The notes beneath the pieces were generated by a model. It did not search any database and was not told the origin of the DNA. It worked only from the letters and a program-made list of their open reading frames with translations. The position numbers were made by a program, and so were the translations under genes. DNA of 64,000 nucleotides from Escherichia coli (GTDB taxonomy: Bacteria > Pseudomonadota > Gammaproteobacteria > Enterobacterales > Enterobacteriaceae), in the NCBI RefSeq assembly GCF_013122565.1, contig NZ_CP053258.1. One strand, 5' to 3'. Shown one piece after another: positions 1,381 to 58,165 of the stretch (position 1 is the first letter of the stretch; every line of letters starts with the position of its first letter).

Positions 1381-2025
1381 TTGTGCCCCGCGTTGTTGCA
1401 GGAACAGAATGGTGGCCGCCACGCGTGAGCGGACATTGAGTTTACGCAGCAGATTGCGAATATGTACTTTTACTGTCTGCTCGGAAATATTCAACACCGA
1501 GGCAATTTGTTTATTTGACAGCCCCTGTGCCAGCTCGTGCAGAACATCCAGCTCGCGCTCCGTCAGCACGCTGAAGGGATCTTCTTCCGCGCCAAACATT
1601 TCACGTTCACGCAAGTACTGATTGACGCGTTCGCTAAAGACTTTGCTGCCTTTCGCTCCGGCACGAATCGCTTCCAGCAACACTTCCGGGTCGCTGTCTT
1701 TCAACAGATAACCGTCTGCGCCTGCGTCTATCAGCGCAAAGACATCGCTGGAGGCATCTGATACGGTCAGGATAATAATTTGCGCGGTAACGCCATCCCT
1801 GCGCAAGGCATTGAGGGTATCCAGGCCACTCATACCTTTCATATTGAGATCCAGCAAGATCACGTCGATATCCAGTCTATTCGCCAGATCGATAGCACTC
1901 GCGCCGTCGCCTGCTTCGGCGACCACTTCAAAGCCAGGATCAAGCTCCAGTAACTGACGAACACCGCGTCGCATAAGTGGATGATCATCCACAATCATCA
2001 CCTGAAAAGGCGTTGCTTCAGGCAT
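1378..2025 (-). CDS. narP: Nitrate/nitrite response regulator NarP (NarL/FixJ family)
   Basis: Translation starts MPEATPFQVMIVDDHPLMRRGV…; receiver domain plus LuxR-type HTH; start trimmed to the internal ATG giving 215 aa. Confidence 0.9.
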   Translation of the reverse strand: MPEATPFQVMIVDDHPLMRRGVRQLLELDPGFEVVAEAGDGASAIDLANRLDIDVILLDLNMKGMSGLDTLNALRRDGVTAQIIILTVSDASSDVFALIDAGADGYLLKDSDPEVLLEAIRAGAKGSKVFSERVNQYLREREMFGAEEDPFSVLTERELDVLHELAQGLSNKQIASVLNISEQTVKVHIRNLLRKLNVRSRVAATILFLQQRGAQ

Positions 2026-2344
2026 AGTAGTCTCCTGAGGTTTTATTAGAATCATTATGTTTGAGCGTAGCGTTGGTAACGCTACCAGGCGCGTGAATGT
2101 TACCCCATTTTATGTATGGACATGTAGTGAAAACTACAACCTTGTCGTTCGCTTCGGCATCATTTTCATTATAAAGACGGAATTTTGCATCAGCTTCTCA
2201 TCAAGAAAAACACCTAAAAAATCAATCACAATACTTGTGCATTTCTTTAAACAGTTTTTAAAAACTGACTCCGGGTATGGAGCTATGGGTATTTTCCGTA
2301 CCCAATGCTTTTAACAGCAATTAATTTCATAGGATGAAAGCTCA

Positions 2345-4936: not shown

Positions 4937-5000
4937 TAACAGAAAATAAACAGGCTGTGATGTGTCGCGGTCTGTTTATCGAATTAAATGCAGATATAAA

Positions 5001-5030
5001 AAAACCAACCGTAAAGGTTGGTTTTTTTTG
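5001..5030. terminator. Bidirectional intrinsic terminator (serves yejO on + and tRNA-Pro on -)
   Basis: Hairpin aaccaacc-gtaaa-ggttggtt flanked by an A-run upstream and a T-run downstream. Confidence 0.65.
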
Positions 5031-5037
5031 GGATTTT

Positions 5038-5114
5038 TGGTCGGCACGAGAGGATTTGAACCTCCGACCCCCGACACCCCATGACGGTGCGCTACCAGGC
5101 TGCGCTACGTGCCG
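5038..5114 (-). tRNA. proL: tRNA-Pro
   Basis: 77-nt sequence on the minus strand reading CGGCACGTAGCGCAGCCTGGTAGCGCACCGTCATGGGGTGTCGGGGGTCGGAGGTTCAAATCCTCTCGTGCCGACCA, with a paired acceptor stem, T-loop GGTTCAAATCC and encoded CCA. Confidence 0.85.
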
Positions 5115-5188
5115 ACTCGTGGCTGTTAATACTACCGTTTTCCACACCGATTGCAAGTAAGATATTTTGCTAACTGATTTATAATTAA

Positions 5189-6949
5189 TCAGTTAGCGAT
5201 AAAACGCTTCTCGTCTGTCAGTACTTGCAATAACAAACTTAACTGTGGTTTTTCATCTTTCACTCTTTCACCACGTAAGTTGTAAGTACGGTATTTACCG
5301 TTATTGTTCAGCACCAGCGTCTTTTTCGGGGTGGTAATTGCCAGCGTATCGTTATCCGCGGCGGTAACCCAGTAATGACGGCGTTGAGGGTTGAACAAAT
5401 CCTGACCTTGCGAATATTCGCTGGCAGGTGTGCTGACATGTAGCAGGCGTTGCATCAGCGTCGTCATCAGATCGGTATGATCAGTCAGAGCATTAATACG
5501 CTGCGCCGGCGTGCCTGGCCAGTGAATCACTAATGGTACCTGCAGATGACCGTGGGACCAGTCAAAGGTTTCTTCCTCTTCGCTCAGCGGAATACCCCGA
5601 CCGGCAGTGATAATCACCACCGTATTGTCCAGTTTGCCAGAATCACGCAGTGCATTGAGCACGCGGTTGATCTGGTCATCGACATTGCCTGCCGCCCGGC
5701 TATATTTCCGTGAAAATGCCTGCTGATTGCTGTCGTCAATGTTAGTGCCATTGAAAGAGACCCACGAGAACCAGCGGTTATCTTCTTGTGCGTAGCGGCC
5801 CAGCCAGTTGATCCACTGCGTGGCGGTCTGCTCGTCGGATTGGGTGCGTACGCTCGGCATCGAGAAATCTGACAACAATGCCTGGCGATACAGCGGGCTG
5901 GTAAAGCCATCTGACGAGAATAACCCCAGCTGATAGCCTTGCTGATTAAGCGCAGTAATTAACGCCGCAGGGGTACGGGTCGACAGAATGCCGTCCATAT
6001 AGCTCGGCGAGATGCCATAGAACAGGCCAAAGATGCCGTTGTCTGTAGTGTTGCCGGAGCTCATATGGCGCGTGAACGAAATATTTTGCTCAGCAAAACC
6101 TGCCAGCGCAGGCATCTGCTTCTCGAAGCGTGAGTAGTTCAGGCCATCGACAGTAATCAACAGCACATTCTGCCCAGTGCCCATATCGCGATAGCGCAGT
6201 TCGCTTAACGGATACTGAACGGAAACGGCGTCTGGATTACCTTGCTCAATAAGACGGCGTTGATACTCCTGCGCATCAAGCAGGCCATGCTTCTCAAGAA
6301 AACGTCGCGCCGTCATCGGGTACGAAAGCGGCAGGTTAGCGCGCTGCATGGTGATCGGGCGATAGAAGTTGGCATCGGCCCAGATATACACCACATGCGA
6401 GGCGATAAAGGCGATAAATAAGAATGCGGCCAGCGGGCGCGCGAAGCGTCGACGACGCGTCAGGCTGCGCAGCTTTTGCCAGCTCCACGTCGCAAACACC
6501 AGTTCAAGCAATAAAATAACCGGCACGCTGATGAACATCAGCTGCCAGTCGCGCGCCATCTCATTTTCGTCTGGGTTGATAACCAGTTGCCAGACGATGG
6601 GATTAAGATGGAGATGGAAACGAGTAAAGACTTCGCTATCGATCAGTAATAGCGTCATTCCCGCCGTTGCCAGAATGACGGACAAAAACCTCATCAGCCT
6701 CTGGGAGCCGACGATAAAGGTCAGCGGGAAGAGGATTAGCAAGTAGGTGGCAAACACCAGGAAGCTGAAATGGCCGATAATGCTTACGTAGGAATAAATG
6801 CGACCAGCAAGCGTGGTCGGCCAGTCGGCGATAAACAGGTAACGGCTGCCAATGACGAGCGAAAGCAGAATATTGAACAGTGCAAACCAGTGCCCCCAAC
6901 TGACCATCTGGGAGACTTTTTCACGGTAGCGCTGACGATGAGTTACCAT
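5189..6949 (-). CDS. yejM: Inner-membrane sulfatase-fold protein YejM/PbgA (regulator of LPS/cardiolipin homeostasis)
   Basis: 586-aa ORF with five N-terminal transmembrane helices and a periplasmic alkaline-phosphatase/sulfatase-like domain; conserved position. Confidence 0.9.
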   Translation of the reverse strand: MVTHRQRYREKVSQMVSWGHWFALFNILLSLVIGSRYLFIADWPTTLAGRIYSYVSIIGHFSFLVFATYLLILFPLTFIVGSQRLMRFLSVILATAGMTLLLIDSEVFTRFHLHLNPIVWQLVINPDENEMARDWQLMFISVPVILLLELVFATWSWQKLRSLTRRRRFARPLAAFLFIAFIASHVVYIWADANFYRPITMQRANLPLSYPMTARRFLEKHGLLDAQEYQRRLIEQGNPDAVSVQYPLSELRYRDMGTGQNVLLITVDGLNYSRFEKQMPALAGFAEQNISFTRHMSSGNTTDNGIFGLFYGISPSYMDGILSTRTPAALITALNQQGYQLGLFSSDGFTSPLYRQALLSDFSMPSVRTQSDEQTATQWINWLGRYAQEDNRWFSWVSFNGTNIDDSNQQAFSRKYSRAAGNVDDQINRVLNALRDSGKLDNTVVIITAGRGIPLSEEEETFDWSHGHLQVPLVIHWPGTPAQRINALTDHTDLMTTLMQRLLHVSTPASEYSQGQDLFNPQRRHYWVTAADNDTLAITTPKKTLVLNNNGKYRTYNLRGERVKDEKPQLSLLLQVLTDEKRFIAN

Positions 6950-11554: not shown

Positions 11555-11947
<393 letters not shown>

Positions 11948-43537: not shown

Positions 43538-44587
43538 TTATGCGATGACGCTTTGAATCACATAGTTAATCGCACCACCACCAACAATCAGCCAGGCAAA
43601 CAGTACCAGTGCCATCAGCAGAGGTTTCGCCCCGGCTTTTTTCAGCGCGCTGACGTGAGTGGTCAGACCCAGCGCCGCCATCGCCATTGCCAGCAGGAAG
43701 GTATCCAGCGTTACCAGCATGTTCACCACGCTCTGCGGTAACAGGTGGAACGAGTTAAAGATGGCAACTACGATGAACAAGATGGCAAACCACGGAATAG
43801 TGATTTTGCTTTTCTCGCCGCTGTTCGCCCCAGACAGCTGTTTAACACGCGCCGCCAGCAGGATGAGGAACGGAGCCAGCATCATCACGCGCAGCATTTT
43901 GGAAATAACTGCTGCGTTTTCCGCATCCGGGCTGATGGCATGACCTGCCGCCACCACCTGCGCCACTTCGTGCACAGTAGAACCAATGTAGATACCGAAA
44001 GTTTCCGGACTAAACCATTGAGACATCAGCGGATATATCGCCGGGTAGAGGAAAATCGCGACGGTCCCGAAGATAACAACGGTTGCAACAGCCACGGTTA
44101 CTTTACTGGCTTCCGCTTTCACTACCGGCTCAGTCGCCAGTACCGCGGCAGCACCACAGATACTGCTACCGGCACCGATCAACCAGCTGGTGTGCTTATC
44201 CAGACCAAACACTTTCTGTCCCAGGAAGCAAGCCAGCAGGAAGGTACTGGACAGCGTCAACACGTCAATGATGATCCCACTGATACCGACATCGGCAATT
44301 TGCGAGAACGTCAGACGGAAGCCATAAAGAATGATACCCAGACGTAATAAATATTGCTTGGCAAACAGCACACCACCGTCACAGCTTTTCCAGATGTGCG
44401 GATAGATGGTGTTGCCTAAAACCATCCCCAACAAAATTGCGAGGGTGAGGGCACTAAACCCGGCACCCGCAACCGCGGGAATGGAACCACCCCACAGGGC
44501 GACCCCGGTGATAACTGCACTCAGGGCTAACCCCGGAATAAAATGCCACAGTGTACGATGTTGTTTCTGTAAGGTGATATTCGTCAT
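43538..44587 (-). CDS. yeiH: UPF0324 inner-membrane protein YeiH
   Basis: 349-aa polytopic membrane protein, divergent from the LysR gene yeiE. Confidence 0.85.
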
Positions 44588-44685
44588 AACCCTCTCCTTT
44601 ATCCGGGCATAAGGTTACGACTAACTGGTTTAAAAATAAAATTGATTATATATTTATAATCAATCTTTATAAGTGGTAAGCGACT

Positions 44686-45567
44686 ATGCACATCACCCTC
44701 CGGCAGTTGGAAGTTTTTGCAGAAGTATTGAAAAGTGGATCAACCACCCAGGCGTCGGTGATGCTGGCGTTGTCGCAATCAGCAGTGAGCGCAGCCTTGA
44801 CCGACCTGGAAGGGCAGCTTGGCGTTCAACTGTTTGATCGCGTGGGGAAAAGACTGGTTGTTAATGAACACGGGCGGCTGCTCTATCCGCGTGCGTTGGC
44901 ACTGCTTGAACAGGCGGTTGAAATCGAACAACTGTTTCGTGAAGACAACGGCGCGATTCGTATCTATGCCAGTAGTACCATCGGTAACTACATTCTGCCT
45001 GCAGTCATTGCCCGTTATCGCCATGATTATCCGCAGTTGCCGATTGAACTTAGCGTTGGGAACAGCCAGGACGTGATGCAAGCGGTACTGGATTTCCGCG
45101 TTGATATTGGCTTTATTGAAGGACCGTGCCACAGCACTGAAATCATTTCTGAACCGTGGCTGGAAGACGAGCTGGTGGTTTTCGCCGCGCCGACTTCGCC
45201 GTTGGCCCGTGGTCCGGTCACCTTAGAACAGCTGGCCGCTGCGCCGTGGATCCTGCGTGAACGCGGTTCCGGCACGCGAGAGATTGTCGATTATCTGTTG
45301 CTGTCACATTTACCGAAGTTTGAGATGGCGATGGAATTAGGTAACTCCGAGGCAATCAAACATGCGGTGCGTCATGGGTTGGGAATTAGTTGCCTGTCGC
45401 GACGGGTGATTGAAGATCAATTGCAGGCAGGCACATTAAGTGAAGTTGCGGTCCCTCTGCCGCGCCTGATGCGTACGTTGTGGCGTATACATCATCGGCA
45501 AAAACACCTTTCCAACGCGCTACGGCGCTTCCTGGACTATTGCGATCCCGCGAATGTCCCGCGTTAA
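44686..45567 (+). CDS. yeiE: LysR-family transcriptional regulator YeiE
   Basis: 293-aa ORF; N-terminal HTH ([24 protein letters not shown]…) and LysR substrate-binding domain. Confidence 0.85.
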
Positions 45568-45771
45568 GTTGCTGTACAAGAACATGCTGGTGCTGTGTCG
45601 ATTTCGTGACGCAGCGCCCTCAGCATGCATTCGCCAGAAAAGAGATTGGCTGCTTTACTTATAATCCCTGGGCGATCATGAAGGTGTCTTATAACCGTGC
45701 ATTTCTGCCGGAAGGATTGCCAATCGTCTGCTACAATCGCGCCTCATTTTTAAGATGGATAGCATTTTTGT

Positions 45772-47241
45772 ATGGTTTCCGAAACTAAAACCACAGAAGC
45801 GCCGGGCTTACGCCGTGAATTAAAGGCGCGTCACCTGACGATGATTGCCATTGGCGGTTCCATCGGTACAGGTCTTTTTGTTGCCTCTGGCGCAACGATT
45901 TCTCAGGCAGGTCCGGGCGGGGCATTGCTCTCGTATATGCTGATTGGCCTGATGGTTTACTTCCTGATGACCAGTCTCGGTGAACTGGCTGCATATATGC
46001 CGGTTTCCGGTTCGTTTGCCACTTATGGTCAGAACTATGTTGAAGAAGGCTTTGGCTTCGCGCTGGGCTGGAACTACTGGTACAACTGGGCGGTGACTAT
46101 CGCCGTTGACCTGGTTGCAGCTCAGCTGGTCATGAGCTGGTGGTTCCCGGATACACCGGGCTGGATCTGGAGTGCGCTGTTCCTCGGCGTTATCTTCCTG
46201 CTGAACTACATCTCAGTTCGTGGCTTTGGTGAAGCGGAATACTGGTTCTCACTGATCAAAGTCACGACAGTTATTGTCTTTATCATCGTTGGCGTGCTGA
46301 TGATTATCGGTATCTTCAAAGGCGCGCAGCCTGCGGGCTGGAGCAACTGGACAATCGGCGAAGCGCCGTTTGCTGGTGGTTTTGCGGCGATGATCGGCGT
46401 AGCTATGATTGTCGGCTTCTCTTTCCAGGGAACCGAGCTGATCGGTATTGCTGCAGGCGAGTCCGAAGATCCGGCGAAAAACATTCCACGCGCGGTACGT
46501 CAGGTGTTCTGGCGAATCCTGTTGTTCTATGTGTTCGCGATCCTGATTATCAGCCTGATTATTCCGTACACCGATCCGAGCCTGCTGCGTAACGATGTTA
46601 AAGACATCAGCGTCAGTCCGTTCACCCTGGTGTTCCAGCACGCGGGTCTGCTCTCTGCGGCGGCGGTGATGAACGCAGTTATTCTGACGGCGGTGCTGTC
46701 AGCAGGTAACTCCGGTATGTATGCGTCTACTCGTATGCTGTACACCCTGGCGTGTGACGGTAAAGCGCCGCGCATTTTCGCTAAACTGTCGCGTGGTGGC
46801 GTGCCGCGTAATGCGCTGTATGCGACGACGGTGATTGCCGGTCTGTGCTTCCTGACCTCCATGTTTGGCAACCAGACGGTATACCTGTGGCTGCTGAACA
46901 CCTCCGGGATGACCGGTTTTATCGCCTGGCTGGGGATTGCCATTAGCCACTATCGCTTCCGTCGCGGTTACGTATTGCAGGGACACGACATTAACGATCT
47001 GCCGTACCGTTCAGGTTTCTTCCCATTGGGGCCGATCTTCGCATTCATTCTGTGTCTGATTATCACTTTGGGCCAGAACTACGAAGCGTTCCTGAAAGAT
47101 ACCATCGACTGGGGCGGCGTAGCGGCAACGTATATTGGTATCCCGCTGTTCCTGATTATTTGGTTCGGCTACAAGCTGATTAAAGGAACTCACTTCGTAC
47201 GTTACAGCGAAATGAAGTTCCCGCAGAACGATAAGAAATAA
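45772..47241 (+). CDS. lysP: Lysine-specific permease (APC family)
   Basis: 489-aa, 12-TM amino-acid permease (…IAIGGSIGTGLFVASG…). Confidence 0.9.
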   Translation: MVSETKTTEAPGLRRELKARHLTMIAIGGSIGTGLFVASGATISQAGPGGALLSYMLIGLMVYFLMTSLGELAAYMPVSGSFATYGQNYVEEGFGFALGWNYWYNWAVTIAVDLVAAQLVMSWWFPDTPGWIWSALFLGVIFLLNYISVRGFGEAEYWFSLIKVTTVIVFIIVGVLMIIGIFKGAQPAGWSNWTIGEAPFAGGFAAMIGVAMIVGFSFQGTELIGIAAGESEDPAKNIPRAVRQVFWRILLFYVFAILIISLIIPYTDPSLLRNDVKDISVSPFTLVFQHAGLLSAAAVMNAVILTAVLSAGNSGMYASTRMLYTLACDGKAPRIFAKLSRGGVPRNALYATTVIAGLCFLTSMFGNQTVYLWLLNTSGMTGFIAWLGIAISHYRFRRGYVLQGHDINDLPYRSGFFPLGPIFAFILCLIITLGQNYEAFLKDTIDWGGVAATYIGIPLFLIIWFGYKLIKGTHFVRYSEMKFPQNDKK

Positions 47242-47262
47242 GTTTCCTCCCTTCCTTGCTAA

Positions 47263-47288
47263 GCCCTCTCAACCGAGAGGGCTTTTTC
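47263..47288 (+). terminator. Intrinsic terminator downstream of lysP
   Basis: Hairpin gccctctc-aacc-gagagggc followed by ttttt. Confidence 0.7.
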
Positions 47289-47333
47289 AATTCCATTTCC
47301 CTGACAAATCATGCGGATATAAAATTTAACATT

Positions 47334-47365
47334 TGGATTGATAATTGTTATCGTTTGCATTATCG
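47334..47365. promoter_or_regulatory. Fur box(es) in the cirA promoter
   Basis: tggattGATAATtGTTATCgtttgCATTATCg resembles overlapping GATAAT/ATTATC hexamers of the Fur consensus, about 170 bp upstream of cirA. Confidence 0.55.
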
Positions 47366-47533
47366 TTACGCCGCAATCAAAAAAGGCTGACAAATCAGAG
47401 GCTGTTCCGGCTTTCTGGGATGATCACCTGCATACAAATAAGTCCACCGCGATGCTGCCGTACGCAAGGGGACGTGAAGAAGATGTGAGCGATAACCCAT
47501 TTTATTTTCGTAGTTACCTCATGGAGATATGGA

Positions 47534-49513
47534 ATGTTTAGGTTGAACCCTTTCGTACGGGTCGGGCTGTGTTTGTCCGCTATTTCTTGTGCATGGCCTG
47601 TGTTAGCGGTCGATGATGATGGCGAAACGATGGTTGTCACTGCATCTTCCGTTGAACAAAACCTTAAAGATGCACCTGCCAGTATCAGCGTCATTACCCA
47701 GGAAGACCTGCAGCGAAAACCGGTACAGAATCTGAAGGATGTCCTCAAAGAAGTGCCTGGCGTACAACTGACGAACGAAGGGGATAACCGTAAGGGCGTT
47801 AGTATTCGTGGTCTGGACAGCAGCTATACCCTGATTCTTGTCGACGGTAAACGCGTTAACTCCCGCAATGCCGTCTTCCGCCACAATGATTTCGATCTGA
47901 ACTGGATCCCGGTCGATTCCATCGAACGTATTGAAGTGGTTCGTGGCCCGATGTCGTCGCTGTACGGTTCCGATGCGCTCGGCGGTGTTGTGAATATCAT
48001 CACCAAAAAAATCGGTCAGAAATGGTCGGGTACCGTTACCGTCGATACCACCATTCAGGAACATCGCGATCGCGGTGATACCTATAACGGTCAGTTCTTT
48101 GCCAGCGGACCATTAATTGACGGTGTGCTGGGAATGAAAGCTTACGGCAGCCTGGCAAAACGTGAAAAGGATGATCCGCAAAACTCAACGACCACCGATA
48201 CTGGAGAAACGCCGCGTATTGAAGGATTCTCCAGCCGCGACGGCAATGTCGAATTTGCCTGGACACCGAATCAAAATCACGATTTTACTGCCGGATACGG
48301 TTTCGACCGTCAGGATCGTGATTCCGACTCGCTGGACAAAAACCGCCTGGAACGCCAGAACTACTCCGTCAGCCATAATGGGCGTTGGGATTACGGCACC
48401 AGCGAACTGAAATACTACGGTGAGAAAGTCGAGAACAAAAACCCTGGCAACAGCAGCCCGATAACTTCCGAAAGCAATACGGTCGACGGCAAATACACGT
48501 TGCCGCTGACGGCGATTAATCAGTTTCTCACAGTTGGCGGTGAATGGCGTCACGACAAACTTAGCGATGCGGTGAACCTGACCGGGGGAACCAGCTCCAA
48601 AACGTCTGCCAGCCAGTACGCGCTGTTTGTGGAAGATGAATGGCGGATCTTCGAGCCGCTGGCGCTGACGACCGGCGTACGTATGGACGATCATGAAACC
48701 TACGGTGAACACTGGAGTCCGCGTGCCTACCTGGTTTATAACGCCACCGACACCGTAACGGTGAAAGGGGGCTGGGCGACGGCATTTAAAGCGCCTTCTC
48801 TGTTGCAACTTAGCCCTGACTGGACGAGCAATTCCTGCCGTGGCGCATGTAAGATTGTGGGTAGCCCGGATCTGAAACCAGAAACCAGCGAAAGTTGGGA
48901 GCTGGGGCTTTACTATATGGGTGAAGAAGGCTGGCTGGAAGGGGTTGAATCCAGCGTTACCGTTTTCCGTAACGATGTGAAAGATCGCATCAGCATCAGC
49001 CGTACGTCTGACGTCAATGCTGCACCGGGCTACCAAAACTTTGTCGGTTTTACAGCGGGCGGTGTGCCGGTATTCAGCTACTACAACGTTAACAAAGCAC
49101 GTATTCAGGGCGTGGAAACCGAACTGAAAATTCCGTTCAACGATGAATGGAAACTGTCACTCAACTACACCTACAACGATGGTCGTGATGTCAGCAACGG
49201 CGAAAATAAACCGCTATCCGATCTGCCGTTCCATACTGCTAACGGTACGCTGGACTGGAAACCGCTGGCGCTGGAAGACTGGTCATTCTATGTTTCTGGT
49301 CACTATACCGGGCAGAAACGAGCCGACAGCGCGACGGCTAAAACACCGGGCGGTTATACCATCTGGAATACCGGCGCGGCCTGGCAGGTGACCAAAGATG
49401 TCAAACTGCGCGCAGGCGTGCTGAACCTTGGCGACAAGGATCTCAGTCGTGACGACTACAGCTATAACGAAGACGGACGTCGTTACTTTATGGCAGTGGA
49501 TTATCGCTTCTGA
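47534..49513 (+). CDS. cirA: TonB-dependent outer-membrane receptor CirA (catecholate siderophore/colicin Ia receptor)
   Basis: 659-aa ORF with signal peptide, TonB box (ETMVVTAS), plug and beta-barrel ending in the terminal aromatic residue (…AVDYRF). Confidence 0.9.
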
Positions 49514-49520
49514 TGAGAAG

Positions 49521-49547
49521 ATGCCCGGCGCGGATCCTGCCGGGCAT
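49521..49547. terminator. GC-rich hairpin downstream of cirA (terminator-like)
   Basis: Perfect 9-bp stem atgcccggc…gccgggcat directly after the cirA stop; no clear U-tract. Confidence 0.4.
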
Positions 49548-49571
49548 AATGCCAGAAATTCGGTTCTGGAT

Positions 49572-50894
49572 TTATAACCGATGAAATTTTGCCAGTAAGG
49601 CCAGTGAAAATGTTGTCAGCAAAATGGTAATGACGGCGTAAATATACACGCCTGACCATTCCCAACTGTTTTTCACCATAATAACTGGAAGCCCTGCCAT
49701 TGCCGCGCCTACATAACTAAATAAGCCCCTGAACCCAGTAATGGAACCTGCCGCATCTTTATGCGTAACATCAAGACATCCGACAGCGAATAACATATGT
49801 GGTCCATATAATGCAAACCCCATGATTGTAAAAAGAATAGCCGTTAATGTGTAGGAGACGTCCTGCACCAGCGGCACGAGAACGATGCAAATACATAAGG
49901 CGATGGCAAACATTAATCCGGTCATCCAGCGGTTACTTTTAAACATAAAATCGGACAAGTACCCCGCCAGTAATCCCCCTGCAAGTCCACCTGCTTCAAA
50001 CCAGGATATAATGGAGTTCGCTTTAATCAGGCTCCAGTTATGAACCTGAGAATAATAAATTTGTGGCCAGTCATTGAGGATGGTGCGTGCAATATAGACT
50101 GACATATCCCCGAGGATAATCAGCCAAACTAATGGGTTGGTAAGAATATATTTAATGAAAATTTGCCAAAAACTCAGATCTACCGGGCTTGCTTTAACTT
50201 GTGCAAGTTCTGTCGGGTCGTTGCGCCACTTACCTACGTTAGGCAAACCGAGTGTGCCAGGACGATCTTTAATCGTAAACAGGGCAACAACCCCCATAAT
50301 CAGCGATATTACACCCGGAACATAAAAGCCCATTTTCCAGCTGCCACTAAAAGCAATGGCAAAGCTTGTCAGGAGAGGCGCAAGACTACCGCCAATATTA
50401 TGCGCCGCTTCAACAACTGCCCACCAGCGCCCGCGTTCATTTTTAGAAAACCACGAGGCCATAATTTTTGCCATCGGCGGAAAACTGGTACCCTGAAGAA
50501 TAGCATTAAGGCTATACAGGATATAGAACGCAGCAACGCTGTCTGAAAAACCGAAAAGAATGTTAACAATACCGACGCCAATAAGTACGGGGCCGGTCAT
50601 TGCGCGTGGGTTAATTTTATCGACTAACATGCCCCCTACAAACTTCATGGAGCCATAAAGAATGTAAAAGACCGACGACATGATAGCGAAATCTTGTGCG
50701 GTTAATGACGTATCCGTCAACATCGCCGGCATGGCCGCAGAGAAATTCTTGCGGGTTAAATAAAATACGGCATAAGAGATAAATACAGAGGTGATGATTT
50801 CAATACGAAATTTTTTATAAGTATGATCAACTTCTTCTTTCGGTTTGACCACTGGTTGGTCGGCCTGGCTGAAAATAAATTTTTTCAAGCTCAT
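49572..50894 (-). CDS. MFS organophosphate:phosphate antiporter (GlpT/UhpT/PgtP family); accessory, substrate unknown (phosphoserine proposed)
   Basis: 440-aa, 12-TM ORF; N-terminal region (…YRRLRWQI… / YLVRKNFALAMP in GlpT versus …YKKFRIEI… / YLTRKNFSAAMP here) and overall architecture match the OPA family; AT-rich. Confidence 0.8.
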   Translation of the reverse strand: MSLKKFIFSQADQPVVKPKEEVDHTYKKFRIEIITSVFISYAVFYLTRKNFSAAMPAMLTDTSLTAQDFAIMSSVFYILYGSMKFVGGMLVDKINPRAMTGPVLIGVGIVNILFGFSDSVAAFYILYSLNAILQGTSFPPMAKIMASWFSKNERGRWWAVVEAAHNIGGSLAPLLTSFAIAFSGSWKMGFYVPGVISLIMGVVALFTIKDRPGTLGLPNVGKWRNDPTELAQVKASPVDLSFWQIFIKYILTNPLVWLIILGDMSVYIARTILNDWPQIYYSQVHNWSLIKANSIISWFEAGGLAGGLLAGYLSDFMFKSNRWMTGLMFAIALCICIVLVPLVQDVSYTLTAILFTIMGFALYGPHMLFAVGCLDVTHKDAAGSITGFRGLFSYVGAAMAGLPVIMVKNSWEWSGVYIYAVITILLTTFSLALLAKFHRL

Positions 50895-50926
50895 CGTGAG
50901 TTTCCTTTTCTGTGAACCTTATGGTG

Positions 50927-51814
50927 CTATAGTTTTTCTTCTATAAAAAAGAGAAGCGACTCGAAACCATTAAAATTAATCTGGTTAGTAACTTTTTCCC
51001 GGGTTTTAGGTTTTGCTTTCCATGCCACGCCATACCCGGCATGCAGAAGCATAGGAATATCATTAGCGCCATCTCCGCAGGCAATGATGTTTTCACGACA
51101 AATAGATAACTCTGTCGCCAAATTTATCAGGGTTTGCTTTTTCTTTTCTGCATTCATAATGGGAAAGGTAATTTTGTCAGTTAATAGATCTTCCTGAATG
51201 CGTACAGAGTTAGAAAATGCAAAATCAAGTTGATATTTTTCTTTTAATCTCTCAGTAAAAATATCTAAACCGCCGGATATAATTGCCGTCTTGAATCCTT
51301 TTTCTTTAAGAATGGGAAGAATAGTTTTAAGACCTGGTGAAAGGGTCATCTGTTCACAAACCTGATGCAATATATCTTTATGTGTTCCTTTAAGCATGCC
51401 AATTCGGCGGGTAAAACTGGTATCAAAATCGATTTTTCCTTCCATCGCTTCACGGGTCAGCGCGGTGATTTTTTCAGAGATCCCGAGTCTACGGGCTATT
51501 TCATCGACGCCTTCCTCTTCAACAAAGGTGGAATCCATATCAAAGGCAATAATTCCCTCAGCCGGTAAGTCCGTAGGTTTGCGGAAAAAATCAAAATGAT
51601 GATGATCAGCACGGTGACGTAAACCAGCATAAAAATCAGGATTGGTTACATCATCTGTTAATACTAGCTTTAGATACTCTTTATTTATTTGCTCACTGTA
51701 ATTCGTTGTTAACGAAAACACCGAGGATGAAACCTTTAAATGTTGCAAATAATGTTCCAGACATTTTTTGGTGATGTCGATGCCTGTTGGCGACAAGAAA
51801 TAAATAATCGTCAT
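50927..51814 (-). CDS. HAD-superfamily phosphoserine phosphatase paralog (SerB-like)
   Basis: 295-aa ORF with HAD motif I (FDMDST), motif III Lys and motif IV (GDGANDIPML); strongly resembles E. coli SerB (…DMDSTAI…, …GDGANDLPMI…AKPK…). Confidence 0.8.
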   Translation of the reverse strand: MTIIYFLSPTGIDITKKCLEHYLQHLKVSSSVFSLTTNYSEQINKEYLKLVLTDDVTNPDFYAGLRHRADHHHFDFFRKPTDLPAEGIIAFDMDSTFVEEEGVDEIARRLGISEKITALTREAMEGKIDFDTSFTRRIGMLKGTHKDILHQVCEQMTLSPGLKTILPILKEKGFKTAIISGGLDIFTERLKEKYQLDFAFSNSVRIQEDLLTDKITFPIMNAEKKKQTLINLATELSICRENIIACGDGANDIPMLLHAGYGVAWKAKPKTREKVTNQINFNGFESLLFFIEEKL

Positions 51815-52023
51815 TTACCGCTCCTTTTTATCTGCAATGATTATAATAAGGTTTCGTAGCGGCTGATGTATCTAACAATCACAGTTGTGAATGTTAAATA
51901 AAAGATAAAAAAGTGCTTTTTTTGATACCCTGAAATAATAAGATACTAAAAGTACCATTTTTGATACCTTTGCCAGGATATAACGAATAACGAGTTTCAA
52001 CGTTGAAGGAATCATTTACAAAA

Positions 52024-53376
52024 ATGGAAAGCTGCTTAGATATATTCAAGATAGTTATAGGTCCATCCAGTTCCCGCACTGTCGGGCCAATGCGTGCGGC
52101 TTATAATTTTGTCTCACAATTGAAACAGCGAGAAATGTTACCTTTGTTGCGGAAAATTGATGTCGAACTTTATGGCGCACTGTCATTAAGCCGCAAGTGC
52201 CATAATGTTGATGTGGCGATTTATCTCGGTTTGCAAGGTCACTTACCTGACAGCGTTGATATCCGCATGGAAATGTCCGCCATCAGGCGTGCGGAAACTG
52301 AGGCGACGCTGGAAGTTATGCCTGGTGTCAACGTTGGTGTAGCCATTATTTCTAATCCACAGGCGCACCCGGGGCATCCTTATGCGATGACATTTCGTGC
52401 CAGAGATGACTGGTTTACGCTTTATGAAGAAACCTGCTTTTCTGTCGGCGACGGTCAGGTTCAAAAAGCGGGAGAGGCGATGATTCCCTCCTCAGTCACT
52501 CCACATCCTTTTGAATTCCAGAACGCAAACGAATTATTAAAACTTTGTCAGCAAAACGGATTATCTGTTGCGGCATTAATGATGAAAAACGAACTACACT
52601 GCCAGACTTCTGATTTTTTGCATGACGATCTCAATAAAAAATGGGAAGTAATGAAGGATGCGGTCTATCGCGGGATGCATACAGAGGGATTACTTCCTGG
52701 TCCGTATCAGGTTAACCGTCGTGCCTGTGCTTTATATAAATCGTTGCAGGCAAAGGGGTTTACCAATGACTTCCTGACTACGATCAATTGGGTCAATACT
52801 TTTGCCATTGCGGTGAGCGAAGAAAATGCTGCAGGTGGACGCGTCGTGACAGCACCCACCAACGGCGCGAGCGGTATTATCCCGGCCGTACTGTGTTGGT
52901 ATGACAAATTCATTCACGAGCTTGATACTTACTCCGTTACCCGCTTTTTTCTGACCGCCGGTGCCATAGCCATTCTGTTCAAAAAAAATGCCTCTATTCT
53001 GGGGTCTGAAGTTGGATGTCAGGGGGAAATAGGCGTTGCCAGTTCAATGGCGGCAGCAGGATTAGCAGAACTTATGGGCGGGTCAGTGACTCAGGTACTC
53101 AGCGCGGCAGAAATTGCGATGGAACACCATTTAGGTTTGACCTGTGATCCAGTTGGCGGGCAGGTACAAATTCCTTGTATTGAACGAAATGCTATTTCAG
53201 CCGTGAAAGCTATCAACGCAACGACGATGGCTTTGAGTCGCATAAGCGAGCCGTGCATTACGCTGGATGAGATAATTTCCGCGATGTATGAAACCGGAAA
53301 GGATATGAGCGCTAAATACCGGGAAACTTATCATGGCTGTCTTAGCAAATTGCAGCCAAGAAAAAAGGACGCGTAA
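52024..53376 (+). CDS. L-serine dehydratase paralog (SdaA/SdaB family, Fe-S dependent)
   Basis: About 450 aa; N-terminal IGPSSS(R/H)TVGPM motif, central …[23 protein letters not shown]… and C-terminal …[19 protein letters not shown]… all near-identical to E. coli SdaA; start set at the ATG following an AAGGA ribosome-binding site (the ORF track begins 21 nt upstream at TTG). Confidence 0.8.
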
Positions 53377-53377
53377 G

Positions 53378-53767
53378 ATGAAATACAATACCATGAATAA
53401 CAACGAAATTATTTTATCTCTGTGCGCACGTATTAAAGAAACGCGGATCTCATTATCATTGACCCAGCAGCAGTTAGCCGATCGTGCATTGGTGGGCATT
53501 GCAACGGTCAAGCGGATTGAAAAGGGGGGAAGTTTAAATCTTGATACCCTCATTTCTCTTCTGCGCGCGCTGAATAAATTGCAAAATCTCGATGCCATAT
53601 TGTTCGAAGCAGAAATGCGTAATTTCAATGAAAATACTTCCAGCGGCGAAGGGGCAGGGCGACTTCAGGTGCGCCAGCAACTGACAGATTTAAACCAGAA
53701 GTCTCCAGCCCCGCACGCAGATGACCGTGATTTTAGTACGGCGCTGGAAAATACTCTTTGCTGGTGA
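53378..53767 (+). CDS. Small XRE-family helix-turn-helix transcriptional regulator
   Basis: 129-aa ORF with HTH (…SLTQQQLADRALVGIATVKRIEKG…); start set at the ATG 1 nt after the serine dehydratase stop. Confidence 0.6.
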   Translation: MKYNTMNNNEIILSLCARIKETRISLSLTQQQLADRALVGIATVKRIEKGGSLNLDTLISLLRALNKLQNLDAILFEAEMRNFNENTSSGEGAGRLQVRQQLTDLNQKSPAPHADDRDFSTALENTLCW

Positions 53768-54637
<870 letters not shown>

Positions 54638-54861
54638 TCATCATACCGTTTATTCAATGTGCTGTGAGTAACTTTCACTTCCGTATTTGCATAACGATGT
54701 TTTAACATCTGCTGATGAAAGGCAGCGGCAATTACAATAATTATCGCTGTGAATACTGGATTATGTGCGCCGCCTCACGCACAATAATCAGGCTGTAAAT
54801 CAGCTTAATAACTTTGCCCCCACGCAGGGCGGAGGCGTCACACCTGCAGGAGAAATCATAA

Positions 54862-55530
54862 ATGCCATCACTCAGTAAAGAAGCGGCCCTGGTTCATGAA
54901 GCGTTAGTTGCGCGAGGACTGGAAACACCGCTGCGCCCGCCCGTGCATGAAATGGATAACGAAACGCGCAAAAGCCTTATTGCTGGTCATATGACCGAAA
55001 TCATGCAGCTGCTGAATCTCGACCTGGCTGATGACAGTTTGATGGAAACGCCGCATCGCATCGCTAAAATGTATGTCGATGAAATTTTCTCCGGTCTGGA
55101 TTACGCCAACTTCCCGAAAATCACCCTCATTGAAAACAAAATGAAGGTCGATGAAATGGTCACCGTGCGCGATATCACTCTGACCAGTACCTGTGAACAC
55201 CATTTTGTTACCATCGATGGCAAAGCGACGGTGGCTTATATCCCGAAAGATTCGGTGATCGGTCTGTCAAAAATTAACCGTATCGTGCAGTTCTTTGCCC
55301 AGCGTCCGCAGGTGCAGGAACGTCTGACGCAGCAAATTCTTATTGCGCTACAAACGCTGCTGGGCACCAATAACGTGGCTGTCTCTATCGACGCGGTGCA
55401 TTACTGCGTGAAGGCGCGTGGCATCCGCGATGCAACCAGTGCCACGACAACGACCTCTCTTGGTGGATTGTTCAAATCCAGTCAGAATACGCGCCACGAG
55501 TTTCTGCGCGCTGTGCGTCATCACAACTGA
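54862..55530 (+). CDS. folE: GTP cyclohydrolase I
   Basis: 222-aa [27 protein letters not shown]…, with the TSTCEHH zinc-binding motif. Confidence 0.9.
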
Positions 55531-55546
55531 TTAAAAGGCAGGAACC

Positions 55547-56704
55547 ATGGAGCGCAACGTCACGCTCGATTTTGTTCGCGGCGTCGCCATTCTGGGGATC
55601 CTGCTATTAAACATCAGCGCCTTTGGGCTACCAAAGGCGGCTTATCTCAATCCCGCCTGGTACGGCGCTATTACGCCGCAGGATGCATGGACCTGGGCAT
55701 TTCTCGATCTCATCGGCCAGGTGAAATTCCTCACGCTTTTTGCGCTGCTGTTTGGTGCTGGCCTGCAAATGTTGCTGCCCCGTGGCAGACGCTGGATCCA
55801 GTCGCGGTTAACGCTGTTAGTCTTGCTGGGCTTTATTCACGGTTTATTGTTCTGGGACGGCGATATTCTGCTGGCTTACGGGCTGGTGGGCTTAATCTGC
55901 TGGCGGCTGGTGCGCGATGCGCCATCGGTAAAAAGCCTGTTTAATACAGGCGTCATGCTTTATCTGGTGGGGCTTGGCGTTTTGCTGTTATTGGGGCTGA
56001 TTTCCGACAGCGAGACCAGCCGCGCCTGGACGCCGGATGCATCGGCTATTTTGTATGAAAAATACTGGAAGCTTCACAGCGGCGTTGAAGCGATCAGTAA
56101 TCGTGCCGATGGTGTTGGCAACAGTTTACTGGCACTGGGCGCACAGTATGGCTGGCAACTGGCTGGGATGATGCTCATTGGTGCGGCGCTGATGCGCAGC
56201 GGCTGGCTGAAAGGGCAGTTCAGCTTACGTCACTATCGTCGTACTGGTTTTGTGCTGGTGGCGATTGGGGTGACCATTAACCTTCCTGCCATCGCCCTGC
56301 AATGGCAGCTGGACTGGGCGTATCGCTGGTGTGCCTTCTTACTTCAGATGCCGCGGGAACTGAGTGCGCCGTTTCAGGCGATTGGCTATGCGTCGCTGTT
56401 TTATGGCTTCTGGCCGCAATTGAGCCGCTTTAAGCTGGTGCTGGCGATCGCCTGCGTCGGACGGATGGCGCTGACCAACTATCTATTGCAAACGCTGATT
56501 TGTACCACGCTTTTTTATCACCTCGGTTTGTTTATGCAGTTTGACCGTCTGGAATTGCTGGCGTTTGTTATTCCGGTATGGCTGGCTAATATCCTCTTCT
56601 CTGTTATCTGGCTGCGTTACTTCCGCCAGGGGCCGGTGGAATGGCTCTGGCGTCAGTTAACTTTGCGTGCTGTCGGACCGACAATATCTAAAACATCAAG
56701 ATAA
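55547..56704 (+). CDS. yeiB: DUF418-family inner-membrane protein YeiB
   Basis: 385-aa polytopic membrane ORF at the conserved position. Confidence 0.8.
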   Translation: MERNVTLDFVRGVAILGILLLNISAFGLPKAAYLNPAWYGAITPQDAWTWAFLDLIGQVKFLTLFALLFGAGLQMLLPRGRRWIQSRLTLLVLLGFIHGLLFWDGDILLAYGLVGLICWRLVRDAPSVKSLFNTGVMLYLVGLGVLLLLGLISDSETSRAWTPDASAILYEKYWKLHSGVEAISNRADGVGNSLLALGAQYGWQLAGMMLIGAALMRSGWLKGQFSLRHYRRTGFVLVAIGVTINLPAIALQWQLDWAYRWCAFLLQMPRELSAPFQAIGYASLFYGFWPQLSRFKLVLAIACVGRMALTNYLLQTLICTTLFYHLGLFMQFDRLELLAFVIPVWLANILFSVIWLRYFRQGPVEWLWRQLTLRAVGPTISKTSR

Positions 56705-56845
56705 CGATCTGGATCACATTCGTTAACAAAACGGCTGTAACCGTTTCCATTGCTGTGACTCGATTCACGAAGTCCTGTAGTCAGTGCTGACAAAATAGCC
56801 GCCAGCAAGCAGTCATTTACTGCAATCTCATAACAGGTAGTGAAT

Positions 56846-57886
56846 ATGATCACCATTCGTGATGTAGCGCGTCAGGCTGGCGTCTCTGTGGCAACGGTTT
56901 CCCGGGTGCTCAATAACAGCACGCTGGTCAGTGCCGACACGCGTGAAGCAGTAATGAAAGCCGTGAGTGAGCTGGATTATCGGCCAAACGCCAATGCCCA
57001 GGCGCTGGCAACTCAGGTTAGCGATACCATTGGCGTGGTGGTGATGGACGTTTCTGATGCGTTTTTCGGCGCGCTGGTAAAAGCGGTGGATCTGGTCGCC
57101 CAGCAGCATGAGAAATACGTGCTAATCGGCAATAGCTATCATGAAGCGGAAAAAGAGCGTCACGCTATTGAGGTGTTAATTCGCCAGCGTTGTAATGCGT
57201 TGATTGTTCACTCAAAAGCATTGAGTGACGATGAACTGGCACAATTTATGGATAACATTCCCGGTATGGTGTTAATCAACCGCGTTGTGCCGGGGTACGC
57301 CCATCGTTGCGTTTGCCTGGATAATCTCAGCGGTGCCCGAATGGCGACGCGCATGTTGCTGAATAACGGTCATCAACGTATTGGTTATCTTTCTTCCAGC
57401 CACGGCATTGAAGATGACGCCATGCGTAAAGCAGGCTGGATGAGTGCGTTGAAAGAGCAGGATATTATTCCGCCGGAAAGCTGGATTGGCACTGGTACGC
57501 CGGACATGCCGGGCGGTGAGGCGGCGATGGTTGAACTGCTGGGGCGCAATCTACAACTTACCGCTGTATTTGCTTATAACGACAATATGGCCGCTGGCGC
57601 ACTGACAGCATTAAAAGATAATGGCATTGCGATTCCGTTACATCTCTCAATCATCGGTTTCGATGATATTCCCATCGCCCGTTACACCGACCCGCAATTA
57701 ACGACCGTGCGTTATCCCATTGCTTCAATGGCTAAATTAGCCACCGAACTGGCCTTGCAGGGGGCAGCAGGCAATATTGATCCTCGTGCCAGCCACTGTT
57801 TTATGCCGACGTTAGTGCGTCGTCATTCTGTCGCAACTCGCCAGAATGCGGCGGCGATCACTAACTCAACAAATCAGGCGATGTAA
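56846..57886 (+). CDS. galS: LacI/GalR-family repressor GalS (mgl/gal isorepressor)
   Basis: Translation [25 protein letters not shown]… with a periplasmic-binding-protein-like effector domain; about 346 aa. Confidence 0.9.
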
Positions 57887-58165
57887 CCGCTTTCAATCTG
57901 TGAGTGATTTCACAGTATCTTAACAATGTGATAGCTATGATTGCACCGTTTTAACGTTGTAACCCGTATGTAACAGTGAATAATCACTTTCACCGAGGTA
58001 ATAGCGTCATAACAACAATTAAAGCCGTTTTCTGGAGCGTTACCGGGCATGGAAGAACGAATTTTAAAAAGTAAGCTTCGGCGTTCAGTAACACTTCATT
58101 AACTCTACTGCCCCGCCGAGCATTTATCTCAAGCACTACCCTGCATAAGAAAAACCGGAGATACC

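Follow-up and report, generated by a model that had tools for sequence, protein, structure and literature searches.

A candidate XRE-family regulator of serine dehydratase genes, encoded flush against yeiG in a four-gene cluster of Escherichia coli

Enterobacteriaceae that live in the gut gain in fitness from the catabolism of L-serine. The monomeric Fe-S L-serine ammonia-lyases (serine dehydratases) of Escherichia coli K-12 belong to the sdaCB, sdaA and tdcABCDEFG loci, of which tdc is controlled by TdcA/TdcR together with global factors. To our knowledge, the serine-catabolic loci of K-12 are without an XRE regulator. The gene considered here encodes a helix-turn-helix (HTH) protein of the XRE family with 129 amino acids, and lies in a stretch of 64,000 nucleotides of E. 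coli DNA (contig NZ_CP053258.1 of assembly GCF_013122565.1), which is referred to as the window and on which all positions are counted; it follows a serine dehydratase paralogue gene (sda) and ends directly against the convergent gene yeiG. A 2026 review of how bacteria use L-serine names sdaA, sdaB and tdcG and no others (PMC13168631), no paper was found on the cluster described below or on the control of serine dehydratase by an XRE protein, and no dedicated regulator of serine dehydratase genes is named in the searched literature. Searches on phosphoserine transport or utilisation and on the Salmonella locus tags STM2195-2198 and STM14_2708-2711 returned incidental mentions only; STM2195 appears as a "putative DNA-binding protein" (PMC3487940), and STM14_2709 in a fitness list (PMC9308263).

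The window has the E. coli-type backbone yeiH-yeiE-lysP-cirA ... yeiG-folE-yeiB-galS, with four extra genes between cirA and yeiG, which form two operons that diverge from a 209-bp A+T-rich region. It is likely, taking the whole account as one joint reading, that the regulator is a dimeric XRE factor which locally controls this divergent four-gene cluster through two predicted operators, O1 and O2, and that its junction with yeiG is ancestral. The four genes are as follows:

49572-50894, minus strand: transporter of the major facilitator superfamily (MFS), organophosphate:phosphate-antiporter type, 440 amino acids, nearest to the UhpC, PgtP and GlpT models
50927-51814, minus strand: SerB-like HAD phosphoserine phosphatase paralogue, 295 amino acids, by profile match
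52024-53376, plus strand: L-serine ammonia-lyase (Fe-S type) paralogue, 450 amino acids, start ATG 52024, first gene of the sda-regulator operon
53378-53767, plus strand: regulator gene, 129-amino-acid XRE/HTH_3 protein of the sda-linked subfamily, by HTH_3 match, dN/dS, alignments and AlphaFold2 (AF2)

The cluster shares the monomeric Fe-S L-serine ammonia-lyase with the K-12 loci, and relatives of the regulator accompany an SdaC/TdcC-type permease and sda, which is the gene pair of sdaCB; it differs from the K-12 loci in having an organophosphate-antiporter-type MFS transporter and a SerB paralogue, and no serine permease. With the UhpT/UhpC, GlpT and PgtP systems it has in common that the uptake of a phosphorylated nutrient is paired with cytoplasmic catabolism under a local regulator, which here is a small XRE protein instead of a two-component system (UhpAB, PgtAB) or GlpR. 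The regulator resembles the XRE/Cro-CI proteins (phage 434 Cro/CI) in its five-helix HTH core and in its predicted tandem short dyads with an A/T-rich, non-contacted centre, whereas it is chromosomal, tied to a metabolic operon and without prophage context, and carries an N-terminal extension (MK[YF]xTMxNxEII) and a tail of about 60 residues with the motifs R[IV]RxK and NxVxW, for which Pfam and NCBIfam hold no model. The best curated subfamily model is that of HipB/Y4mF (TIGR03070), which is alike in architecture only (an HTH followed by an unstructured tail with a conserved Trp); the regulator falls under its cut-off and is adjoined by serine dehydratase genes, and not by a HipA-like kinase or toxin gene. 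The advance is thus one of assignment and not of principle, the regulator remaining an XRE-family local regulator: what is new is the proposal of a family of regulators, and of their operator motif, for sda operons, and a predicted phosphoserine-to-pyruvate pathway in Citrobacter, Salmonella subspecies and 1.6% of E. coli, together with a corrected history in which the locus would be ancestral and in the course of being lost, and not a recent insertion.

Re-reading of the sequence agrees with the initial annotation on the coordinates of the frame and on its flush contact with yeiG. The regulator opens with ATG at 53378-53380, runs for 129 codons and closes with TGA at 53765-53767, its start standing 1 nt after the TAA stop of sda (53374-53376), a gap which implies translational coupling. 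Its ribosome-binding site is found inside the dehydratase gene:

53365-53369, plus strand: AAGGA, Shine-Dalgarno sequence of the regulator, within the final sda codons, 8 nt 5' of the ATG

The spacing between sda and the regulator is also tight in other genera (-11 to +4 nt), and the Prokaryotic Genome Annotation Pipeline gives the identical 129-amino-acid coding sequence in E. coli S3 and other strains. A longer reading of the frame, from an in-frame ATG at 53333, would yield 144 amino acids and was rejected, given that the added residues are not conserved and that M1-K2 of the 129-amino-acid form are invariant across the close family; the C-terminal Trp is likewise invariant there. The initial annotation had allowed for the frame not being translated, and a real gene is favoured by the invariant M1-K2, by a Pfam HTH_3 (PF01381) match of 37.5 bits against a cut-off of 23, covering residues 19-66, and by a dN/dS that stays at 0.02-0.09 in comparisons inside Escherichia as well as between genera and is somewhat more relaxed in the tail (0.12-0.26). 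By these comparisons the regulator is under strong purifying selection and its open reading frame is a real gene, which encodes a previously uncharacterised member of the XRE/HTH_3 family.

The layout of the protein comprises an HTH core at about residues 8-66, an extended helix at about 69-86, a low-confidence tail and the invariant C-terminal Trp. AF2 places helices at regulator residues 8-25, 30-37, 41-48, 55-64 and 69-86, and predicts residues 86-115 to be disordered, followed by a short terminal helix. The AF2 model of the regulator alone is mediocre (mean predicted local distance difference test, pLDDT, of 65), and a Foldseek search with it against the PDB returned only uninformative long-helix matches, none of them at E<=1e-3.

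The 3' end of the gene meets yeiG without any intergenic base, given that the TTA at 53768-53770 is the reverse complement of the yeiG stop:

53765-53770: stop-to-stop junction TGA/TTA of the regulator and yeiG, from sequence and alignments
53768-54604, minus strand: yeiG (S-formylglutathione hydrolase/esterase), 278 amino acids, ending ...HAQYLQE-stop, from the Pfam esterase match and the RefSeq annotation of the equivalent gene

A genome scan found 11 species-representative genomes which carry the regulator and span several genera. The contact is flush (0 nt) in eight of the 11 and becomes a 12-nt overlap in the remaining three, where the TGA of the regulator runs into a slightly longer yeiG. 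The flush junctions are mostly the palindrome TGATCA, which in Citrobacter is made up of TGA/TCA. On this evidence the zero-base junction is an inherited, stable feature of the site in Escherichia, Citrobacter, Salmonella and Scandinavium. The gene yeiG is itself unusually polymorphic, as seen at 53999-54598 in the comparison with E. coli 2013C-4282 (locus L013): island-bearing strains, i.e., those with the four genes, differ by 9-11% of nucleotides over 600 bp, and by less than 1% in the nearby folE.

The evidence for the function of the regulator comes from the company it keeps. The subfamily to which it belongs, here called the sda-linked XRE subfamily, was defined in this analysis and has no database name, all family members being named only "helix-turn-helix transcriptional regulator" in the databases. 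When 1.84 billion representative proteins were searched with a profile, 296 representatives were obtained at E<=1e-10; the members of the subfamily, 100-150 amino acids long, are built from an N-terminal motif (M[KR][FY]xT[ML]xDxEII..LC.RIKETR), the HTH, an extended helix (LRAL..L.QLE), a basic R[IV]RxK and a C-terminal NxVxW. The window protein fits this architecture, with RLQVRQQ in place of the basic motif and ENTLCW kept at the end.

Members of the close family have a taxonomic range as narrow as that of the SerB paralogue and were never found apart from the cluster. Where the cluster is rearranged, a homologous regulator is retained: a Salmonella contig with prophage genes (L018) has the order serB-MFS-HTH with a convergent sda and a regulator that is 53% identical and ends in ...VVIW, a metagenome contig (L017) has serB-MFS-HTH with a regulator 40% identical, and a third locus (L020) retains the usual gene order with an Rrf2 gene adjoining in the place of yeiG. 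Among distant members, at 33-38% identity, all three with a readable context adjoin sda genes: the regulator lies directly 3' of sda in L055, is convergent with an sdaC-like/sda pair in L053, and is divergent from sdaC-like/sda/sda in L057/L058. The partner gene in these distant lineages encodes an SdaC/TdcC-type serine/threonine transporter, above the cut-off of TIGR00814. The metagenome loci of the Klebsiella oxytoca type (n=38) present a convergent sda in 35 of the 35 with enough downstream flank, the other three being cut by the contig end; the sda gene lies 81-121 nt downstream of the regulator, or 496 nt in one locus. In a separate group of two loci (L059, L083), sda lies 55-117 nt downstream. 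None of 20 generic XRE loci, taken as a control in the same kind of scan, has sda within 7 kb. The linkage is therefore found in co-directional, convergent and divergent orientations, in most cases together with an SdaC-type serine permease, and the regulator stays with sda through changed gene orders and contexts, which marks the dehydratase, and not yeiG or the MFS and SerB genes, as the constant partner in these comparisons.

Three of these contexts have features of their own. A K. oxytoca-type paralogue of the regulator (L052 7001-7441; 146 amino acids, 41% identical) is carried by the E. coli IncFIA plasmid pBH100alpha (NZ_CP025254.1), a conjugative resistance plasmid in which aph(3')-Ia and ISKpn26 occupy the position that sda has in the chromosomal relatives; the other matches in plasmid and phage collections are mis-binned pieces of Salmonella chromosome. 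In L053, which comes from a metagenome-derived genome, the stretch that separates the regulator gene from the convergent sda contains about 35 tandem CGCTAAT heptamers (about 6500-6740). The L057/L058 locus (1573-6795) is an E. coli-associated variant, in which the regulator gene (product WP_414757636.1) is divergent from an sdaC-like permease gene and a tandem pair of sda genes; a gene with a ProQ domain begins 3 nt after the regulator, and a mobile element is suggested by neighbouring PerC and integrase genes.

The divergent control region, aligned across 17 lineages, is poorly conserved overall, with sharply conserved blocks that consist of the phosphatase Shine-Dalgarno sequence, the -10-like element ATTATAAT, box A (ATCACAGnTGTGAATGTTAAA) and two copies of AAAGTRYYNTTTTTGATAY. 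Each copy of this last repeat (19-21 nt) holds a 16-bp dyad, GTATC-N6-GATAC. In the window these elements lie as follows:

51840-51847, minus strand: ATTATAAT, conserved palindromic -10-like element, which would best serve the serB-like/MFS promoter
51878-51898: box A, ATCACAGTTGTGAATGTTAAA, conserved block of the 17-lineage alignment
51913-51928: O1, predicted operator, GTGCTTTTTTTGATAC, dyad GTATC-N6-GATAC, with a 19-nt pattern match at 51910-51928
51952-51967: O2, predicted operator, GTACCATTTTTGATAC, dyad GTATC-N6-GATAC, with a 19-nt pattern match at 51949-51967

O1 lies 39 bp upstream of O2, and the spacing of 39-40 bp is kept across lineages though the sequence of the spacer is not. The two sites are the only matches to the 19-nt pattern in the 64-kb window, where 0.07 would be expected. 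Four lineages carry this dyad upstream of linked sda operons, in two or three copies at intervals of 33-40 bp, and a fifth has weak two-mismatch sites only. The L057/L058 variant has the dyad GTATCGTAAATAATAC and a weaker site 39 bp off, upstream of the sda operon; in L053 there are three sites, separated by 40 and 33 bp; the K. oxytoca loci have the site GTATCATTTTTAATAC; and L096 has two weaker sites, 38 bp apart. A protein family, its target operon and a motif which co-occur across lineages are the usual comparative-genomic signature of a regulator and its operator, and we infer that the window regulator binds O1 and O2. The initial annotation had called the gene a likely cognate regulator of the island, a proposal which is strengthened both by the sda linkage kept through rearrangement and by the conserved dyads in the divergent control region.

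The predicted pathway starts with the import of O-phosphoserine by the MFS transporter, goes on with its dephosphorylation by the SerB paralogue and ends with the deamination of the resulting serine to pyruvate and ammonia by the Sda paralogue. The last of these enzymes, a monomeric Fe-S lyase whose start is best placed at ATG 52024, scores 545 bits with TIGR00720 (cut-off 345), and the phosphatase scores 210 bits with TIGR00338 (cut-off 144); the transporter reaches E values of 1e-126 to 1e-82 with the models of UhpC, PgtP and GlpT, yet remains below every curated cut-off. The serB-like gene begins with a start codon at 51814, preceded by a GGAG Shine-Dalgarno sequence at 51820-51823.

In the mechanism proposed, the regulator would bind O1 and O2 as dimers within the 209-bp divergent region and, from there, set the expression of both operons (serB-like/MFS and sda-regulator). 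As the last gene of the sda operon, translationally coupled to its neighbour, it would also control its own synthesis. Expression would respond to the availability of serine, the effector presumably being L-serine or a close metabolite, and external O-phosphoserine, the presumed transported substrate, would be turned into serine and then into pyruvate, ammonia and phosphate. The serine permease which is found in the sdaC-sda operons of the relatives would be replaced here by the MFS transporter and the SerB paralogue. The regulator thus probably provides a local, serine-responsive control of a predicted phosphoserine-to-pyruvate pathway.

Several observations weigh against parts of this account, which, as regards both the pairing of regulator and operator and the control of the cluster, is drawn from comparative genomics. 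The distant member L055, from a GC-rich organism, has no dyad upstream of its sda. Box A, situated upstream of the -10-like element assigned to the serB-like/MFS promoter, equals O1 and O2 in conservation, and could be the site of the regulator, O1 and O2 belonging in that case to another factor. The transporter is nearest to UhpC, a model of a sugar-phosphate sensor/transporter, and phosphoserine is proposed as its substrate from gene neighbourhood, while direct sensing of serine has to be set against a protein in which no ligand-binding domain was recognised and whose tail is predicted to be disordered. A scan of the control region for the sigma-70 consensus returned no promoter, and did not separate the geometry of a repressor from that of an activator. 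Finally, as regards the history of the site, the yeiG tail of island-free E. coli, i.e., strains without the four genes, reads LLK-stop and is identical to that of Citrobacter, whereas island-bearing E. coli and Escherichia whittamii have L(Q/R)E-stop; the loss of the cluster was therefore not one simple deletion from the present island-bearing haplotype, and two yeiG-tail haplotypes may have long coexisted or been exchanged within Escherichia. As a separate observation on box A, its Salmonella form is a direct repeat, ATCACAG-AT-ATCACAG.

As to the direction of control, repression is favoured, by a modest degree, because small XRE proteins usually repress, as do most of those characterised so far, and because the sda side has a single -10-like hexamer (TATAAC, 51979-51984), with O2 a short distance upstream of it. 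O2 itself contains TTGATA, so that its occupation would fit the occlusion of a promoter. The regulator might instead be an activator, acting from tandem sites upstream of weak promoters and, through the sda-regulator operon, on its own synthesis in a positive manner. There is no good -35 sequence for either promoter, the serB-like side combining a perfect -10 (ATTATAAT) with a poor -35, a tandem arrangement with a spacing of about 39 bp, placed 5' of the likely starts, fits the geometry of an activator, and the sites of L057 are found between the divergent genes, at a distance from the -10-like element that precedes the regulator's own gene. The geometry depends on where transcription starts, and, given also the habits of small XRE proteins and the fit to occlusion at O2, activation is considered less probable than repression.

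Another question is how serine would be read. The conserved disordered tail of the family (R[IV]RxK, Y-x6-N-x-V-x-W, ending in Trp in the window protein) might form a switch in a protein with no small-molecule pocket, which may dock a partner protein or act as a protease degron, so that serine status may be read indirectly, e.g., via the dehydratase, the transporter or proteolysis. The tail of HipB, which also ends in Trp, acts in partner contact or proteolysis. An AF2 model of an Sda-(GGGGS)6-regulator fusion left the tail unordered (pLDDT 29-39) and lends no support to a direct contact of enzyme and regulator, in what is a weak test, made with a shallow paired alignment of 19 rows and a monomer-model workaround. 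The switch is regarded as doubtful; if it were true, an antitoxin-like regulatory module would have been re-used for a catabolic operon.

The close contact with yeiG raises the possibility that the convergent arrangement is itself functional, with overlapping read-through antisense RNAs that would couple serine catabolism to S-formylglutathione hydrolase. The initial annotation had pointed to possible interference with yeiG in the absence of a terminator, and this last part holds, given that a scan of both strands found no intrinsic-terminator-like site at or near the junction. In keeping with such coupling, the gap of zero or the 12-nt overlap is retained across genera, and yeiG of island-bearing strains has no hairpin beside its stop, the hairpin which corresponds to that of the island-free spacer lying about 4.2 kb away, at the cirA border. 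Relatives of the regulator, on the other hand, adjoin other genes at various distances, with a gap of 184 bp to the Rrf2 gene in L020, about 100 nt to sda in the K. oxytoca loci and 36 nt in L018, and the contact with yeiG is therefore not part of the system. Untranslated read-through could be terminated by Rho, and the folds of the flanking RNA are unremarkable (z of -2.1 in the yeiG 3' region and of -0.2), the weak signal in yeiG being due to a long-range pairing of the repeat GAAAATAC/CCAGCG, which is not conserved in other species. A zero gap can also persist for the reason that deletions would damage either the C-terminal Trp or the end of yeiG and that insertions are rare, so that constraint on both C-termini explains its stability well enough. 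The functional coupling is accordingly judged improbable.

Two further observations concern the RNA of this region. Within the regulator gene, GAAAATACTTCCAGCG (53637-53652) and CGCTGGAAAATACTC (53743-53760) can pair in the antisense yeiG 3' RNA; this pairing is probably fortuitous, because the stretch of protein encoded by the first element lacks conservation in other genera. Rfam gave no family in the junction region, and its matches at gathering score in the window, a tRNA at 5041-5114 (minus strand) and a gammaproteobacterial ribosomal protein L25 leader at 11861-11886 (minus strand), are unrelated to the cluster.

The origin of the locus bears on the same junction, which had been taken for a precise insertion point at the 3' end of yeiG. 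This would make the four genes a recently acquired island, inserted precisely after the yeiG stop, with the flush contact as its scar. The complete cluster is present in 85 of 5,426 complete E. coli genomes, always chromosomal and in single copy, and four more keep remnants cut by IS1; such rarity (89 of 5,426) speaks for recent acquisition, as do the G+C content of the cluster (35-47%), which is lower than that of its flanks, and the break of homology with island-free strains at the very end of yeiG. The left border was set by comparison with those strains:

49514-49571: left border of the cluster, with the cirA terminator hairpin ATGCCCGGC-N9-GCCGGGCAT

The same four genes, in the same order and at the same site between cirA (or another TonB-dependent receptor gene) and yeiG, are nevertheless found in Citrobacter koseri and several species of the C. 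freundii complex, in Salmonella enterica subsp. diarizonae, arizonae and enterica, in Scandinavium and in E. whittamii, the flush or overlapping junction being present in all 11 species representatives. The divergence of the cluster genes is in step with that of the flanking core genes and with the species tree: proteins of the cluster are 90-99% identical between the two Salmonella subspecies, and between genera the phosphatase is 58-69% identical, Sda 72-80%, the regulator 69-78% and the MFS transporter 88-94%, against 73-100% for the flanking genes. Within E. coli, the island-bearing alleles are 94.8-97.9% identical to the window and differ from each other by up to 5-8%, with a dS of up to 0.195 for the regulator, which indicates that they are old and mosaic. 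The borders have no common direct or inverted repeat of at least 8 nt, and no integrase or tRNA gene was found in 44000-58000, the only tRNA being that at 5041-5114.

The comparison with island-free strains, which the initial annotation had proposed, was carried out and gave no clean junction after the stop. These strains have a 31-bp spacer between cirA and yeiG with a short hairpin, in which a shortened cirA hairpin is followed by 6 nt and the yeiG stop. The left arm of the cirA terminator hairpin is common to both states, and homology on the right side restarts only inside yeiG, so that the 14 nt past the common hairpin arm and the final 9 nt of yeiG are without a clear counterpart in island-bearing strains. 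The yeiG tail reads ...HAQYLLK-TGA in island-free E. coli and ...YLQE-TAA in every island-bearing E. coli allele; as the last two codons and the stop differ by island state, a breakpoint cannot be placed cleanly after the stop, and the exact deletion breakpoint of island-free E. coli was not mappable from the alignments. A precise recent insertion is thus very unlikely. It is concluded from these comparisons that the arrangement of the cluster is ancestral to these genera and has been lost by most E. coli, which would be the more economical history.

In Citrobacter the left neighbour is an opposite-strand gene for a TonB-dependent receptor that is 38-39% identical to CirA (L003 1873-3858, L009 1864-3849). 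Given this exchange, the left neighbour of the cluster is not conserved, whereas the right neighbour, yeiG, is.

Least probable is that the regulator is a type II antitoxin (HipB/Y4mF or MqsA/HigA) or a phage CI/Cro-type repressor which stands here by chance: its best NCBIfam matches are indeed the couple_hipB/Y4mF antitoxin model, RstR and MqsA, PHROG repressor families match, its PDB relatives include 434 Cro, HipB and MqsA, and its HTH and disordered tail with a conserved Trp resemble the layout of E. coli HipB, but the scores are far under the cut-offs (41.6 against 71.65 bits for TIGR03070, 24 against 80 for RstR, 22.5 against 61.8 for MqsA, TIGR03830), PADLOC gave no match, neither the window nor any orthologous locus has a toxin-like or phage gene beside it, and its neighbours are consistently sda genes. 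Both identities were rejected, that of a type II antitoxin on the missed curated cut-offs, the absence of a PADLOC match and the neighbours (sda and yeiG instead of a toxin gene), and that of a CI/Cro/RstR repressor on the RstR score, on PHROG matches to generic regulators only and on the lack of phage genes nearby. BLASTP against a HipB sequence found no similarity (E = 24), and in the phage collection the matches of the regulator were limited to two unannotated 2-kb records.

Finally, signs of damage to the cluster were seen in single lineages. In E. coli VE-T9 (L016 2558-3532) and in E. coli strain 35 (H75), an insertion of IS1 has eliminated the SerB-like gene together with most of sda and left intact the MFS gene, the regulator gene and its flush contact with yeiG. 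In one locus of S. enterica subsp. enterica (L011 8001-8390), the regulator has a GTG start and a nonsense change, TAC to TAA, 11 codons before the usual end, which deletes the conserved ...ALENSLCW tail, and truncated SerB-like entries from serovars of the same subspecies were also present in the protein search, which together suggest a decay of the cluster in some Salmonella lineages.

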